A stretch of DNA of 7,865 bases from a virus (Duplodnaviria; Heunggongvirae; Uroviricota; Caudoviricetes): the IMG/VR virus record IMGVR_UViG_2602041549_000002; one strand, given 5' to 3'. A model generated the notes under the pieces. That model saw nothing but the letters and a program-made list of their open reading frames with translations. It searched no databases and had not been told where the DNA came from. The position numbers were made by a program, and so were the translations under genes. Each line of letters starts with the position of its first letter. Positions within the stretch are counted from its first letter, which is position 1. This document shows positions 1 to 7,300 of the stretch, piece by piece.

Positions 1-24
1 AATAATCGCGGTGACTCTACTCAT
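1..24 (-). CDS. Rz: Rz spanin, N-terminal 8 codons only; gene continues beyond the window start
   Basis: ATG at 24..22 overlaps the R stop codon (ATGA). Translation MSRVTAII matches the start of lambda Rz as I recall it. Too short in window to confirm independently. Confidence 0.6.
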
Positions 25-497
25 CCCTCAATCTCTCTGACCGTTCCGCCCGCTTCTTTGAATTTTGCAATCAGGCTGTCAGCCTTATGCTCGAACTGAC
101 CATAACCAGCGCCCGGCAGTGAAGCCCAGATATTGCTGCAACGATCGATAGCCTGACGGATATCACCGCGATCAATCATCGGTAAAGCGCCACGCTCTTT
201 AATCTGCTGTAGTGCAACAGCGTCCTGGCTTTTCGGAGAGAAGTCTTTCAGCCCAAGCTGCTTGCGGTAGGCATCCCACCAACGGGAAAGAAGCTGGTAG
301 CGTCCGGCTGCTGTTGATTTGAGTTTTGGGTTTAGCGTGACAAGTTTGCGAGGGTGATCGGAGTAATCAGTGAATAGCTCTCCGCCAACAATGACGTCAT
401 AACCATGATTTCTGGTTTTCTGACGTCCGTTATCAGTCCCCTCTGACCACGCCAGCATATCGAGGAACGCCTTACGTTGATTATTGATTTCCACCAT
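21..497 (-). CDS. R: Endolysin R (lambda-type lytic transglycosylase)
   Basis: 158 aa [27 protein letters not shown]..., recognised as near-identical to lambda R, with the catalytic Glu in the WSEGTD context. Start overlaps the S stop; stop overlaps the Rz start. Confidence 0.95.
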
Positions 498-804
498 CTT
501 CTACTCCGGCTTTTTTAGCAGCGAAGCGTTTGATAAGCGAACCAATCGAGTCAGTACCGATGTAGCCGATGAACACGCTCGTTATATAAGCGAGATTGCT
601 ACTTAGTCCGGCGAAGTCGAGAAGGTCACGAATGAACCAGGCGATAATGGCGCACATCGTTGCGTCGATTACTGTTTTTGTAAACGCACCGCCATTATAT
701 CTGCCGCGAAGGTACGCCATTGCAAACGCAAGGATTGCCCCGATGCCTTGTTCCTTTGCCGCGAGAATGGCGGCTAACAGGTCATGTTTTTCTGGCATCT
801 TCAT
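481..804 (-). CDS. S: Holin S, class I, with dual start (S107 antiholin at Met1, S105 holin at Met3)
   Basis: 107 aa ORF beginning [10 protein letters not shown]..., near-identical to lambda S. The Met-Lys-Met dual-start motif is present (ATG at 804..802 and 798..796). Confidence 0.95.
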
Positions 805-1225
805 GTCTTACCCCCAATAAGGGGATTTGCTCTATTTGATTAGGAATAAGGTCGGTTACTGATAGAACAAATCCAGGCTACTGTGTTTAGTAATCAGATT
901 TGTTCGTGACCGATATGCACGGGCAAAACGGCATGAGGTTGTTAGCGCAGCCTCTTGCCACCCGCTTTCACGAAGGTCATGTGTAGAAGGCCGCAGCGTA
1001 ACTATCACTGATGAATTCAGGATAGCCAGTGGCTACGGCTCAGTTTGGGTTGTGCTGTTGCTGGGCGGCGATGACGCCTGTACGCATTTGGTGATCCGGT
1101 TCTGCTTCCGGCATTCGCTTAATTCAGCACAAAAGGAAGAGCGCTAGCCTACCTCTATCGATTAACGGGCTTGTGGGGCAGTATCGCCGATTCACCTAAC
1201 GCTCTTCCCTTTGTGATTGTAACGC

Positions 1226-1253
1226 AAAAAGCCCCGAGCTATTAACTCAGGGC
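1226..1253 (-). terminator. Intrinsic terminator downstream of pR' (tR'-equivalent); also hairpin plus T-run on the plus strand, so possibly bidirectional
   Basis: Minus-strand RNA GCCCUGAG-UUAAUAG-CUCGGGGC (8 bp stem with one G-U pair, 7 nt loop) followed by UUUUU. It lies about 55-60 nt downstream of the predicted pR' start. Confidence 0.6.
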
Positions 1254-1289
1254 TTTATTTAACGAGTGCATTTATCCATCGTTGAGTCA

Positions 1290-1318
1290 AATTTACCCAA
1301 CTTTATTCAAAAAGTCAA
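1290..1318 (-). promoter_or_regulatory. Late promoter pR' with overlapping Q-utilisation (qut) region
   Basis: Minus strand reads TTGACT (1318..1313), 17 bp spacer, TAAATT (1295..1290), then ..CAACGATGG.. in the initial transcribed region. This matches lambda pR' and its pause-inducing element as I recall them, and sits immediately downstream of Q. Confidence 0.8.
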
Positions 1319-1360
1319 TATTATGCCGTTAATATGTTGCCATCCGTGGCAATCATGCTG

Positions 1361-1984
1361 CTAACGTGTGACCGTATTCAAAATGCTGTCTGCGATTGAC
1401 TCTTCTTTGTGGCATTGCACCACCAGAGCGTCATACAGCGGCTTAACAGTGCGTGACCAGGTGGGTTGGGTAAGATTTGGGATTAGCATCGTCACAGCGC
1501 GATATGCGGCGCTTGCTGGCATCCTTGAATAGCCGACACCTTTGCATCTTCCGCACTCTTTCTCAACAACTCTCCCCCACTGCTCTGTTTTTGCTATATC
1601 AACTGCCCGACCTGTACCGTGGCAATCTCTGCATCTTGCGCCCGGCGTCGCGGCACTACGGCAATAATCCGCATAAGCGAATGTTGCGAGCACTTGCAGT
1701 ACCTTTGCCTTAGTATTTCCTTCGAGCTTTGCCACACCACGGTATTTCCCCGATACCTTGTGTGCAAATTGCATCAGATAGTTGATAGCCTTTTGTTTGT
1801 CGTTCTGGCTGAGTTCGTGCTTACCACAGAATGCAGCCATTCCGAATCCGGCTTGTGATTGCGCCATCCCCATAGCAGCCATCACATCAGTACCGGAAAG
1901 AGAGTCAGAAGCCGTGGCCCGTGGTGAGTCACTCATCATCGGGCTTTTTGGCGAATGAAATTTAGCTACGCTTTCGAGTCTCAT
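1361..1984 (-). CDS. Q: Late gene antiterminator Q (lambda type)
   Basis: 207 aa [30 protein letters not shown]...; recognised as near-identical to lambda Q, including the Cys-rich zinc-binding region (CRDCHGTGR...CGRCKGVG). Start overlaps the ninI stop (ATGA). Confidence 0.95.
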
Positions 1985-4007: not shown

Positions 4008-4180
4008 TTCCTCGCACGATGTCTTAGCCACCGGATATCCCACAGGTGAGCCGTGTAGTTGAAGGTTTTTACGTCAGATTCTTTTGGGATTGGCTTGCGT
4101 TTATTTCTGGAGCGTTTCGTTGGAAGGTATTTGCAGTTTTCGCAGATGATGTCGGTGAAACTTCGTCGCTGTCGTCTCAT
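4004..4180 (-). CDS. ninE: NinE
   Basis: 58 codons from the ATG at 4180..4178: [58 protein letters not shown], matching lambda NinE. ATGA overlap with the upstream methyltransferase stop. Confidence 0.85.
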
Positions 4181-4704
4181 GTCGCCCTCCTGACGCCCTG
4201 CCCGATCGCCATCAATGCCGCTTTGGATACGGTAGTAAACATCCGTCGAGGACTGATGAACGGTCGCCAAATCAGCAGCATGGAGCCTTTGCTGTTTCCC
4301 TTCTTCTCCAACCCTGTCGATGGTTCGATAAAATTAATCCGTCCATCAGTGATAATGCGAACTTCGTCGACACTCTCCAGAGCCTTGCTGAACCATCCGA
4401 CTGACATATCCTCTGGCACAAGCATAACTACCGTCTGTCGCTGTTGTATGCACTGCTCAGCGGCTTTTTCCACCCACGGCCTGATATTGCTGTACGGTGG
4501 GTTATTCCAGATTGCACCGTGGCTTATCCACTCAGAATTTAGCGCGTCGTCGGCCTCAGTTAACCAGTGAGCGCACAGAGCATTTTTGTCGCTCGCTGCC
4601 GAATCCAGCCAGAATCCAAACTCAATATCCAGTGCATCAAAAAGCCAAAGCGGCGTTTGCCAGCAGTCCTTGTCGTGTGCTGGCGTATTTGATTTGATAG
4701 TCAT
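4177..4704 (-). CDS. Phage-type DNA N6-adenine methyltransferase (small Dam-family orphan MTase)
   Basis: 175 codons from the ATG at 4704..4702 ([26 protein letters not shown]...). Contains the catalytic NPPY motif ([11 protein letters not shown]) typical of N6-adenine methyltransferases. Occupies the position of lambda ninC/ninD. ATGA overlaps with ninB upstream and ninE downstream. Confidence 0.85.
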
Positions 4705-5141
4705 GCAGCCCGATCTCCCCATCTCGCTTTCCACTCCAGAGCCAGTCTCGCTTCGTCTGACCACTTAACGCCACGCTCTGTACCGAATGCCTGTATAAGC
4801 TCTAATAGCTCCGCAAATTCGCCTACACGCATCCTGCTGGTTGACTGGCCTATTACCACAAAGCCATTCCCGGCAAGGTTAGGAACAACATCCTGCTGCT
4901 TTAATGCTGCGGTAAACACACACTTCCAGCTTTCTGCATCCAGCCAGCGACCATGCCATTCAACCTGACGAGAGACGTCACCTAAGCAGGCCCATAGCTT
5001 CCTGTTTTGGTCTAAGCTGCGGTTGCGTTCCTGAATGGTTACTACGATTGGTTTGGTTGGGTCTGGAAGGATTTGCTGTACTGCGTGAATAGCGTTTTGC
5101 TGATGTGCCGGAGATCGAATTTCAAAGGTTAGTTTTTTCAT
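4701..5141 (-). CDS. ninB: NinB (Orf-family recombination mediator of the nin region)
   Basis: 146 aa ORF MKKLTFEIRSPAHQQNAIHAVQQILPDPTKPIVVTIQERNRSLDQNRKLW..., recognised as lambda NinB. Good Shine-Dalgarno (GAGGGAAG) upstream of the ATG at 5141. Confidence 0.9.
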   Translation of the reverse strand: MKKLTFEIRSPAHQQNAIHAVQQILPDPTKPIVVTIQERNRSLDQNRKLWACLGDVSRQVEWHGRWLDAESWKCVFTAALKQQDVVPNLAGNGFVVIGQSTSRMRVGEFAELLELIQAFGTERGVKWSDEARLALEWKARWGDRAA

Positions 5142-5419: not shown

Positions 5420-7300
5420 TTAATACTCCGTCACGTTTTCCTGTCGCCACGCCTCGTCATATTCCGATTTCGGCATATTGGCGATGTAGCTATAAGGCGA
5501 TCCTGATTCAAGTTGCAGGAACTGGTGCGATTGCTCGTCAAGGAACAACGGGACACCACCTTCCCAACCTTCGCCGTTACGTTGTTTTTCAAGCATCAAA
5601 ACAGATGCCGGAGATGCCAGTAGCTGTTCGTCCTTCTCTGACATCTTTTCACCACTCTGAACTCTCTGTAACGCTCTCTCGCGAGCCTTGTTACGCCAGA
5701 TGATAAAAAGGTTGTCTGTCAGGTCTGTTATCGCTCCAGAGCCTTTTACGTCCATTTTCCCGGTTGGTTTTTCTTCGCTATCTCCTTTTCTGGAGTGAGT
5801 AACGAGAATGACGTGGGAGTTTGTTTTGTTTTTGAAATCGCAAATCGAGTCAACAAATGCTTTCTGCCCGTTATAGTCATCGTCACCTATGCCGCATTTC
5901 ATCAGGCTGTCGATGATGAATAACTGGATGCCGTATCGGCGGCGAGCGTAGTCGAATATTTCGATCAGCCTGTCGGCTTTCGCCGTTCCAGTCAGGCCAA
6001 ACACCCAAAGTCTTTCGTCATAAAATTTAAATGCAGAGTCAATTTCCAGCACTGGCGGCATCTTGCAGCACGTCGCCTGACGGGTAAGGCGCTTAAGGAG
6101 AATACCAGGCTTCAGCTCAAGTGACGCGATGCACGTCTTCACACCCTGACGCATTGCCTCAAGTGCCATATGCCCGACAACCTCCGTTTTTCCGTGACCG
6201 TTCACACCATTGACCAGCGTCAACTCGGCCTCACGAAACTGGAATTTATCTGCCAGAGATTCCCACGGTGGATTAAACAGATACTGCTGCTTGCCGTAGA
6301 AAGCGTTGATAGTGTCCTGGTAAAACTCTCGCGCGCTGTAGAGTTCTTCAGGATCAAAGTAGGATGCCGTGCCGATGTACTGCCAGATTTCATCCTCGGT
6401 AACACCGTTCATCAGGCATTCGTTGATGTCTTTGTACGGCAGAGTAACAAGACGGCAACGATGTTCACCGAGTCGGCTTGCGATTTCCCTTGCGGCTTCA
6501 CGACCAACATCATCAACGTCCATCGAGATGAATATTTCCTCAAACCTGTCGAGGTTGTGGTACTCAAACTCAATCCACTGTTGCTTAGCGCCTTTCCCTC
6601 CACCAAACGGCACGGATAACGCCGAGATGCCGTATTGCGCATAGCTCATACAATCAATTTCGCCTTCGCAAAGTACAACCGCCCTCACGCCAGCGTCCAG
6701 AGCCTGCCATCCGAACAGACAAGGTTCGCAATCACCTTCTGCCATAATGACTTTCTTCCCGTCCGGGCGCTCAGCGCTGATTCGCTTGACCTGCAACAAC
6801 TCACCATCGCGTTTGTACGGAAGCACCAGTGCATCAAGTTCTCGTTCTCCATTCCACACCTTGCCGCTGACAACCTCGTAGCGCTTTACGACTTCTGGCG
6901 ATATGCCACGCGATTGCAGGTACTCAAGATGGGATTCTGTTCTGGTAACGTAGCGGGCGATTTTCTTGCGATCAGGTCTGGAGAATTTTTTCTCACGTTT
7001 GGCATCGAAATGGTGATCGTCATCCTTGATACCGAGAAATGCTTTCGCTTCCTGCATAGCCTGATGCAGGTTAATTCCACGACATGCCATCCACAAATCA
7101 AGCATGTCACCGCCGTCTCCCTCAGCGAAATCAGCCCATTTTTTCTTGCCGCTAAGGTTGACCTTAAGGCTGTTTCCCTTGTCACCGTTGACGTTACCGG
7201 CAACCCACTCATGCCCCTCTTTCTTGCCGTTTGGCAACAGGTGCGGAGCCACCCTGTCAACCTGCGCCCAAAGCAGGTCGCTGAGTTCACTTGGCCTCAT
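5420..7300 (-). CDS. Bifunctional DNA primase-helicase (Toprim/DnaG-like primase fused to DnaB/SF4-like P-loop helicase; T7 gp4-like architecture)
   Basis: 626 aa ORF. Toprim acidic motif VVLCEGEIDCMSY. Walker A GVNGHGKTE, Walker B LFIIDSL, then HVILVTHSRK and KGSGAITDLTDNLFIIWR resembling DnaB-family H3/H4 motifs. Shine-Dalgarno GAGGGA upstream of the ATG at 7300. Replaces lambda O/P. Confidence 0.85.
   Translation of the reverse strand: MRPSELSDLLWAQVDRVAPHLLPNGKKEGHEWVAGNVNGDKGNSLKVNLSGKKKWADFAEGDGGDMLDLWMACRGINLHQAMQEAKAFLGIKDDDHHFDAKREKKFSRPDRKKIARYVTRTESHLEYLQSRGISPEVVKRYEVVSGKVWNGERELDALVLPYKRDGELLQVKRISAERPDGKKVIMAEGDCEPCLFGWQALDAGVRAVVLCEGEIDCMSYAQYGISALSVPFGGGKGAKQQWIEFEYHNLDRFEEIFISMDVDDVGREAAREIASRLGEHRCRLVTLPYKDINECLMNGVTEDEIWQYIGTASYFDPEELYSAREFYQDTINAFYGKQQYLFNPPWESLADKFQFREAELTLVNGVNGHGKTEVVGHMALEAMRQGVKTCIASLELKPGILLKRLTRQATCCKMPPVLEIDSAFKFYDERLWVFGLTGTAKADRLIEIFDYARRRYGIQLFIIDSLMKCGIGDDDYNGQKAFVDSICDFKNKTNSHVILVTHSRKGDSEEKPTGKMDVKGSGAITDLTDNLFIIWRNKARERALQRVQSGEKMSEKDEQLLASPASVLMLEKQRNGEGWEGGVPLFLDEQSHQFLQLESGSPYSYIANMPKSEYDEAWRQENVTEY

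Follow-up and report, generated by a model that had tools for sequence, protein, structure and literature searches.

The late promoters of phages 21, phi80, 82 and P22 make short RNAs that are regulated by antitermination (PMC7547250). The antiterminators lambda Q and P22 gp23 are interchangeable (PMC8022706). In Stx phages, the pR'-tR' transcript gives rise to StxS, an sRNA of 74 nt, and RNase E cuts the longer terminated RNA (PMC7547250). Two lambda RNAs are of particular interest here, both of which bind Hfq: the 6S RNA and LPR2, a ~63-nt sRNA of the late operon that is mainly lytic. StxS is reported to have no sequence similarity to either of them in the preprint that describes LPR2. This preprint names no nuclease and leaves the structure, processing and conservation of this RNA undiscussed (bioRxiv 10.1101/2024.10.31.621285).

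In the current work we compare these systems with the late-control region of a virus of the class Caudoviricetes (IMG/VR record IMGVR_UViG_2602041549_000002). The whole stretch of DNA that was analyzed, 7,865 nt in length, is referred to below as the window. An earlier, sequence-only reading of this stretch had proposed that the segment next to pR' is replaced in comparison with lambda.

Gene content of the window

The window holds a lambdoid late-control region in reverse-complement orientation, with its genes on the minus strand. Q, a lambda-type late antiterminator of 207 aa (1361..1984, minus strand; Pfam PF03589 Antiterm, E = 1.3e-57), is 97-99% identical to the Q sequences of lambda and of prophage loci. 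The first gene of the late operon is S, a holin/antiholin of 107 aa (481..804, minus strand; Pfam PF05106, E = 2.4e-30) that is 99-100% identical to lambda-family S. The 158-aa ORF at 21..497 (minus strand) was taken as R on the strength of its alignment with the lysin/endolysin that related records annotate. The Q-S interval is 556 bp of non-coding DNA.

Further genes on the minus strand encode NinB, a Dam methylase (4177..4764), NinG and a Ser/Thr phosphatase. A single 626-aa primase-helicase with Toprim and DnaB-like parts (5420..7300, minus strand) is found instead of lambda O/P. The Toprim/DnaB-like replication module and the Dam methylase are ordinary lambdoid mosaicism. The closest phage record to the window is Shigella phage Sf101 (88% coverage, 98.2% identity). 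The Q-S interval itself has end-to-end matches only in ~16 prophages of E. coli; the records of the phage collection searched cover at most 82% of it.

Late promoter, short leader and terminator

The Q-S region of the window was aligned pairwise with lambda 44470-45210 using MAFFT. The two sequences are nearly identical over the end of Q, over pR' and on to 1261, which covers the initial ~24 nt of the transcript. The pR' late promoter (1290..1318, minus strand) lies downstream of Q, the stop codon of which at 1361 is 43 bp ahead of the -35 element. It includes the -35 element TTGACT (1318..1313), a 17-bp spacer and the -10 element TAAATT (1295..1290); it scores 9/12 matches in a promoter scan and aligns column for column with lambda pR'. 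The Q-binding element (QBE) sits in the spacer. Two differences from lambda in the spacer are common to P22, HK97, mEp235 and Emek, and the whole spacer is identical to those of mEp235, HK97 and P22. In the mEp235 record, pR' and qut are annotated with “2bp mismatch”.

The transcription start was set at A1283 by alignment with lambda +1 (44587). The segment 1261..1283 (minus strand) thus comprises the start, the pause-inducing AACGAT (+1..+6) and a 5' leader hairpin (+1..+23), assigned by alignment and folding. We take AACGAT to be the -10-like sigma70-dependent pause signal known from lambda pR'.

After ...CTCGTT, lambda has 135 extra bases, followed by a stretch of only loose similarity down to ~1135. 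Identity to lambda of ~97% is found again from 1127 (CTGAATTAAGCG...) to S, and the untranslated region upstream of S (805..1127, minus strand) corresponds, also at ~97% identity, to lambda 44863-45185. The alignment thus bears out what had been read from the letters: a lambda-like Q and pR' with its -35, -10 and pause elements, a divergence after the pause element, and a return of lambda-like sequence near 1130 that continues to S. The interval is not colinear with lambda throughout.

A candidate intrinsic terminator tR' of the P22/HK97 type is located at 1226..1256 (minus strand). It has a 13-bp stem with an 8-bp G+C-rich core, a 3-nt loop and a U5 tract. Folded alone, the hairpin 1256..1228 (+28..+56) reaches -19.1 kcal/mol, and UUUUU follows at 1230..1226. 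The whole leader from A1283 folds with -23.3 kcal/mol (z = -4.0; none of 200 shuffles was as good). The predicted unmodified transcript is ~57-58 nt from A1283, compared with 194 nt for the lambda 6S RNA, so the earlier estimate of 55-60 nt to a hairpin with a U tract was accurate. According to this fold, the terminator would end the unmodified transcript at ~58 nt. A generic terminator scanner reported no site in the scanned region of the window, the U5 hairpin included. In our reading the scanner missed it since the stem is lengthened by three A-U pairs at the expense of part of the U tract; the tract has only five U and is followed by GCGUU. The Emek record annotates the leader hairpin as a rho-independent terminator found with MFOLD, an annotation that is itself a fold prediction only.

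The terminator is not related in sequence to that of lambda. When the 46-nt terminator segment was compared with the lambda 6S body and tR' by local alignment, 356 of 1000 shuffles scored as well. Therefore we regard it as a non-homologous substitution relative to lambda rather than an internal deletion. The swapped leader and terminator account for only 1261..~1221 of the diverged interval.

Distribution of the short-leader allele

The block 1300..1213 of the window is 93-98% identical over 88 bp to P22, HK97, HK022, mEp235, HK544, Emek and others. It was found in 117 phage records (Escherichia, Salmonella, Klebsiella). When six sequences were aligned, the window agreed with P22/HK97-type phages at all diagnostic sites where it departs from lambda. 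These sites comprise two positions of the QBE, the variants of the pause region and the stretch that reaches from the terminator hairpin to the U tract. The latter stretch reads alike in the window, Emek, mEp235 and HK97. The late regions of P22, HK97, HK022, mEp235 and Emek thus agree with the window in QBE, pause variants, terminator and a predicted RNA of ~58 nt. Of 5426 complete E. coli genomes, 332 have the short leader and 422 have the lambda 6S body; therefore both are common alleles.

The window has a lambda-type Q, the promoter with QBE and pause element, and a terminator homologous to that of P22/HK97, and we assign its leader to the P22/HK97 subtype of lambda-type Q late leaders. 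It is not a lambda 6S RNA, i.e., a 194-nt RNA with the 6S body and tR': 135 nt are missing and the rest is non-homologous. As judged by sequence comparison, the block of pR', QBE, pause element, leader and terminator is the standard, already known allele of P22/HK97-type phages. The notion of a swapped terminator module is thus correct as far as lambda tR' is concerned, but the module, which other lambdoid phages share, is not unusual.

The lambda pR'-6S-tR' region and the window have a Q of the same family and are alike in the promoter, the position of the QBE, the pause element and the 5' hairpin of the leader, and they have the same sequence from the 3' flank of the long hairpin described below to S. 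By analogy, the logic would be the same as well: constitutive initiation, termination and Q-dependent read-through. Only lambda has the 135-nt 6S body and orf-64; the leader of the window has 58 nt versus 194 nt, and its terminator is unrelated. The lambda orf-64 (44621-44815), which starts inside 6S, lies almost wholly in the segment that has no counterpart in the P22/HK97-type allele. Thus orf-64 is not a conserved part of lambda-type Q late regions.

The long hairpin between the terminator and S

The similarity to P22/HK97-type phages ends at TTTTTGCGTT. After it these phages have unrelated sequence without a long hairpin, whereas the window has a long hairpin followed by the lambda-type region upstream of S. 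The replaced interval was recognized correctly as regards the diverged leader and terminator, but it consists of two modules, the second of which, an 88-nt hairpin at 1128..1215 (minus strand), had been missed. This hairpin has a perfect 20-bp closing stem, CACAAAGGGAAGAGCGTTAG / CTAGCGCTCTTCCTTTTGTG, and a 48-nt interior that includes a 23-nt loop, CCACAAGCCCGUUAAUCGAUAGA. It begins at +68 from the pR' start, folds with -38 kcal/mol (z = -4.4) and is followed by UUUUGUG.

Lambda has a 76-nt hairpin at 44787-44862 (+201..+276), in the same position and with the same 3' flank, CTGAATTAAGCG. The probe used for LPR2 in northern blots maps to lambda 44816-44850, within this hairpin. The arms of the two hairpins differ by compensatory changes, and the interiors are unrelated. 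The two hairpins share the position directly after tR', the downstream flank, and the length and register of the closing stem. In contrast to that of lambda, the window interior is 12 nt longer, and the window stem is perfect, without the bulged A and the U-U mismatch.

The window hairpin has the features of the LPR2 family: a stem of ~20 bp, arms of the form CACAA..AAGAGC / GCTCTT..TTGTG, the sense of the late operon and a position directly after tR'. Its interior is not homologous to that of lambda LPR2 and instead matches copies in phage-plasmids. On these sequence features, the window hairpin is a new interior class of the LPR2-type hairpin.

A second promoter-like site (1216..1245, minus strand; TTAATA, 18 bp, TACAAT; 9/12 matches) overlaps the terminator. 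Transcription from it would begin ~6 nt into the 5' arm of the long hairpin. By chance alone, the scanned region should contain about one site of this quality.

A family of hairpins with conserved arms

The family was searched for with an arm-core pattern that fixes 10 of the 19 stem pairs; thus only 9 pairs carry information on covariation. Exact patterns, loosened, were used to reach diverged arms. The arm-core pattern was found in more than 119 IMG/VR loci, which is a lower bound. Matches occur in prophages of Serratia, Rahnella, Klebsiella, Pantoea, Kluyvera, Sodalis, Erwinia, Enterobacter, Citrobacter and other Enterobacterales.

The matches listed contain 134 elements of 68-106 nt in 130 loci. 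Among them the arms are almost invariant (CACAACAGGTAAGAGCATTG ... CAGTGCTCTTTCCGTTGTG), and the interiors, 29-62 nt in length, form ~29-42 unrelated classes, the number varying with the cut-off used for clustering. These matches include 47 distinct arm pairs, in which 8 of the 9 unconstrained stem pairs have double-sided changes. The arms have 35 compensatory cells, a value reached by none of 500 shuffles, and the signal collapses in slid registers. One stem pair is most commonly U-G (27 of 47 rows), which favors RNA pairing on this strand.

The genomic positions were also compared among the matches listed. Elements are co-oriented with neighboring genes in 84 of 102 cases. Terminator-like hairpins with a T run, of many different sequences, precede 62 of 132 copies within ~20 nt. 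Other copies adjoin small G+C hairpins or tRNA genes on the same strand, and about a dozen loci have two copies. No motif common to the interiors was found among these matches (k-mer counts are not above those of shuffles), the interiors as a group are not unusually structured, and no whole tRNA is enclosed by the conserved arms.

Two observations concern the flanks of the family members in IMG/VR loci. A small 5-bp G+C stem with a purine-rich loop of 6-7 nt often abuts the hairpin where no terminator precedes it; small G+C stems occur in the 45 nt upstream of many members, e.g., CCTCGGAAGAGACGAGG, GCCTGGAAAGACAGGC and GCTCCACGAAACGGAGC, and their shape recalls boxB-type hairpins. Within the first 25 nt downstream of the members, the flank GTGAATGCNCAGGCTGATGNGN recurs in ~20 loci and looks like a further small conserved hairpin.

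The exact lambda hairpin also occurs in species-representative assemblies of unrelated bacteria, e.g., Pseudomonas, Psychrobacter, Algoriphagus, Tardiphaga, Oceanobacillus and Shewanella. The 76-nt match was checked in loci L133, L134, L138, L140, L143, L147, L148, L150, L151, L154, L156 and L159, and L163, L164, L167, L170, L172, L180, L188, L189 and L192 are suspected on the same grounds. Contigs in L133, L159 and L170 (the last suspected only) are ~48.4-48.5 kb, and the lambda genome is 48.5 kb. We read the lambda hairpin in these assemblies, on the 76-nt match only, as contamination with lambda DNA. Matches outside Enterobacterales were rejected as family members, being either such contamination or chance matches with weak arms.

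Known RNA families were considered as well. No Rfam 15 family matches the window region 780..1400 (none reaches its threshold at E <= 10), and an Rfam scan of 15 loci holding family members gave tRNAs only. The matches to isrJ, NsiR1 and the rimP leader at E <= 10 are insignificant and are driven by the generic shape of a terminator. None of the prophage sRNA families AgvB, AsxR, STnc100, IsrK and others was found at the Rfam gathering score in 780..1400. The anti-sRNAs AgvB and AsxR have a different architecture: they are convergent primary transcripts, in which the 3' terminator region is conserved and the 5' end varies (PMC4104026). PasD/STnc100 is encoded near Q and holin genes (2026 preprint), but the STnc100 model has no match in the window or in the loci scanned. 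As far as the literature searched and Rfam 15 go, this large covarying family with unrelated interiors has not been described.

Window-type interiors in phage-plasmids

The interior of the window hairpin is nearly invariant in 16 E. coli prophages. Hairpins of the window type, with an overall identity of ~83%, were also found in 86 phage-plasmids. These are ~110 kb in size, and judging from size and gene content we take them to be putatively SSU5-like. There it directly follows tRNA-Thr in an Asn-Tyr-Thr-...-Ser tRNA array, and a second, diverged cassette comes after it. For example, the E. coli plasmid pCP53-113k (locus L007) has a window-type hairpin at 1501-1589 and the second cassette 52 nt later, at 1641-1719. 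The second cassette has GATC for GAGC in both arms, i.e., a compensatory change. None of the hairpin cassettes of the phage-plasmids is annotated.

The Klebsiella phage-plasmids pJN2-26 and vB_Kpn_1825-KPC53 have the ~50-nt window interior next to and upstream of tRNA-Asn, where its closing stem is an unrelated one of 7 bp, GACACCG/CGGTGTC (L197 and L198, ~395-460). Thus the cargo moves independently of the 20-bp arms. The inner 5-bp helix of the window-type interior covaries in three ways: CUGCC/GGUAG, CUGAC/GUCAG and CAGCC/GGCUG. Together with the different arms, this covariation indicates that the interior behaves as a conserved RNA itself and the arms as an exchangeable frame. A tRNA identity of the hairpin was considered in view of the copies within tRNA arrays, but we rejected it: ARAGORN detected no tRNA anywhere in the window, and neither the window hairpin nor its copies in L007 and other loci match the tRNA model of Rfam.

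Proposed mechanism

We consider it probable that the late leader of this virus consists of two modules, a P22/HK97-type switch and a processing hairpin of the LPR2 family, and, as a part of the same explanation and with the same confidence, that the short-leader cassette was acquired by the usual mosaic recombination among lambdoid phages. From sequence identity, folds, covariation and genomic positions we infer termination, read-through with Q, cleavage by RNase III and any action in trans.

Module 1 (1318..1221) would be a late control cassette of the P22/HK97 type. Its mechanism (constitutive pR', pause, termination, read-through) is proposed because of homology. Transcription from pR' would be constitutive, and RNA polymerase would pause at about +16/17 under the influence of the -10-like AACGAT. 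Without Q, it would terminate at the hairpin with U5, leaving the ~58-nt leader RNA. Q loaded at the pause would allow read-through into S-R-Rz and the structural genes. Module 1 would thus do the job of lambda pR'-6S-tR'.

Module 2 (1215..1128) would be transcribed by read-through only. Its conserved 20-bp stem may serve as a double-strand processing site, most likely for RNase III, and would be cut near its base. Such a cut would detach the leader from the lysis mRNA and set free a small RNA of ~75 nt, with the interior as its functional, exchangeable part. A processing site fits the helix of ~20 bp, its location directly after tR' or a tRNA, and the size of the lambda product, which falls ~13 nt short of the full hairpin. 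In particular, a 63-nt LPR2 from the 76-nt hairpin is consistent with cuts in both arms ~7 bp from the base, at the bulged A and the U-U mismatch. Daniels et al. (Virology, 1988; cited in PMC7547250) reportedly deal, according to their title, with RNase III processing sites in lambda late RNA; the citing texts searched give no coordinates of these sites.

RNase III stems around the 16S and 23S rRNA and the intercistronic sites of T7 are processing helices in long transcripts. By analogy, they and the window hairpin would have in common a helix of ~20 bp flanking an RNA to be released. In the hairpin family, however, the enclosed RNA has only 29-62 nt and differs between phages, and the cleavage is a prediction. 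More tentatively, and with slightly less than even confidence, we suggest that the family is a widespread scaffold of Enterobacterales phages and phage-plasmids, in which a conserved, covarying stem of ~20 bp, located right behind the late terminator or between tRNA genes, would be cut by RNase III and release one of dozens of unrelated 30-60-nt cargos, and recombination in the arms would exchange the cargos. If the scaffold is read in this way, lambda LPR2 is its sole member seen experimentally.

Alternative explanations

The most likely alternative is that the ~58-nt leader is a trans-acting, Hfq-dependent sRNA in lysogens, similar to StxS, and that this role explains its conservation. We find this possible but unlikely. 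StxS and the window leader are both short products of a Q-regulated late promoter, and StxS persists in lysogens; the phages encoding StxS have a Q type different from that of the window. A constitutive pR' would suit such a role, the terminated product in Stx phages is a functional sRNA (PMC7547250), and lambda 6S binds Hfq. In phages of Escherichia, Salmonella and Klebsiella, the leader is conserved at 93-98%. It consists of a 5' hairpin, the short AAAUAAA in single-stranded form and a terminator hairpin that ends in a U tail. However, this tail is short, the only resemblance in Rfam is to isrJ and is not significant (E = 0.55), and the conservation can be explained by the promoter, QBE, pause element and terminator packed in ~100 bp.

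Somewhat less likely is an action of the arms at the DNA level, as a recombination boundary or as the inverted repeats of a mobile element, with the RNA structure being incidental. Inverted repeats in DNA would covary too, which counts against the RNA-level reading. Recombination in the arms would yield near-identical 20-bp arms around unrelated interiors, and the same interior occurs with entirely different arms in the Klebsiella phage-plasmids. Against this explanation, U-G is the commonest state of one pair, the orientation is biased toward the transcribed strand, no target-site duplication is present in the flanks examined, and lambda makes an RNA from the hairpin. The DNA-level and RNA roles of the arms are compatible, and a recombination boundary may explain the exchange of cargo.

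The sequence-only reading had also suggested that the terminator hairpin could stop convergent transcription from the lysis side. We regard such a bidirectional action of the hairpin 1256..1228 as improbable. The arrangement is suggestive, with AAAUAAA before the stem and a U run after it, so that the plus strand reads as a hairpin followed by TTTATTT. However, this T run is interrupted, and the plus-strand hairpin reaches only -13.5 kcal/mol (z = -1.96; 8 of 200 shuffles are as good); it is weaker because two G-U pairs become C-A mismatches. Furthermore, all ORFs of the window that were assigned to families are on the minus strand, and the promoter scan gave no plus-strand promoter-like site in 700..1500.

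Still less likely is the hairpin 1215..1128 as a second terminator in tandem rather than a processing or sRNA element. UUUUGUG does follow the 20-bp stem in the window, and reports from the 1980s describe terminators in tandem downstream of lambda pR'. However, in lambda and in most arm variants the 3' arm ends in ..CCGTTGTG with no U run, interiors of 29-62 nt would be very large loops that are atypical of intrinsic terminators, a discrete RNA of ~63 nt comes from inside the lambda hairpin, and some copies of the family are located between tRNA genes.

Finally, we reject on the above shuffle test (356/1000), as very improbable, a short leader that is the lambda 6S region after an internal 135-bp deletion with a diverged tR': the lengths agree (194 - 135 = 59 nt) and MAFFT sets the window hairpin opposite the 3' half of lambda tR', but the similarity to 6S/tR' does not go beyond TCGGG..TTTTT, and the 93-98% identity to P22/HK97, with the diagnostic QBE and pause differences, therefore points to the whole cassette being a different allele.

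Implications

We thus retain the two-module explanation, a P22/HK97-type switch followed by an LPR2-family hairpin. The short allele means that a lambda-type Q switch can do without the 6S body and without orf-64. Lambda represents only one of the two late-leader alleles that are common, which cautions against its use as the “normal” reference. If the interpretation of the hairpin family as a processing scaffold is true, the arms would provide a sequence signature for phage sRNAs that are made only in lytic growth. It would also give LPR2 an evolutionary context and link the late-leader RNAs of lambdoid phages to the tRNA arrays of phage-plasmids.
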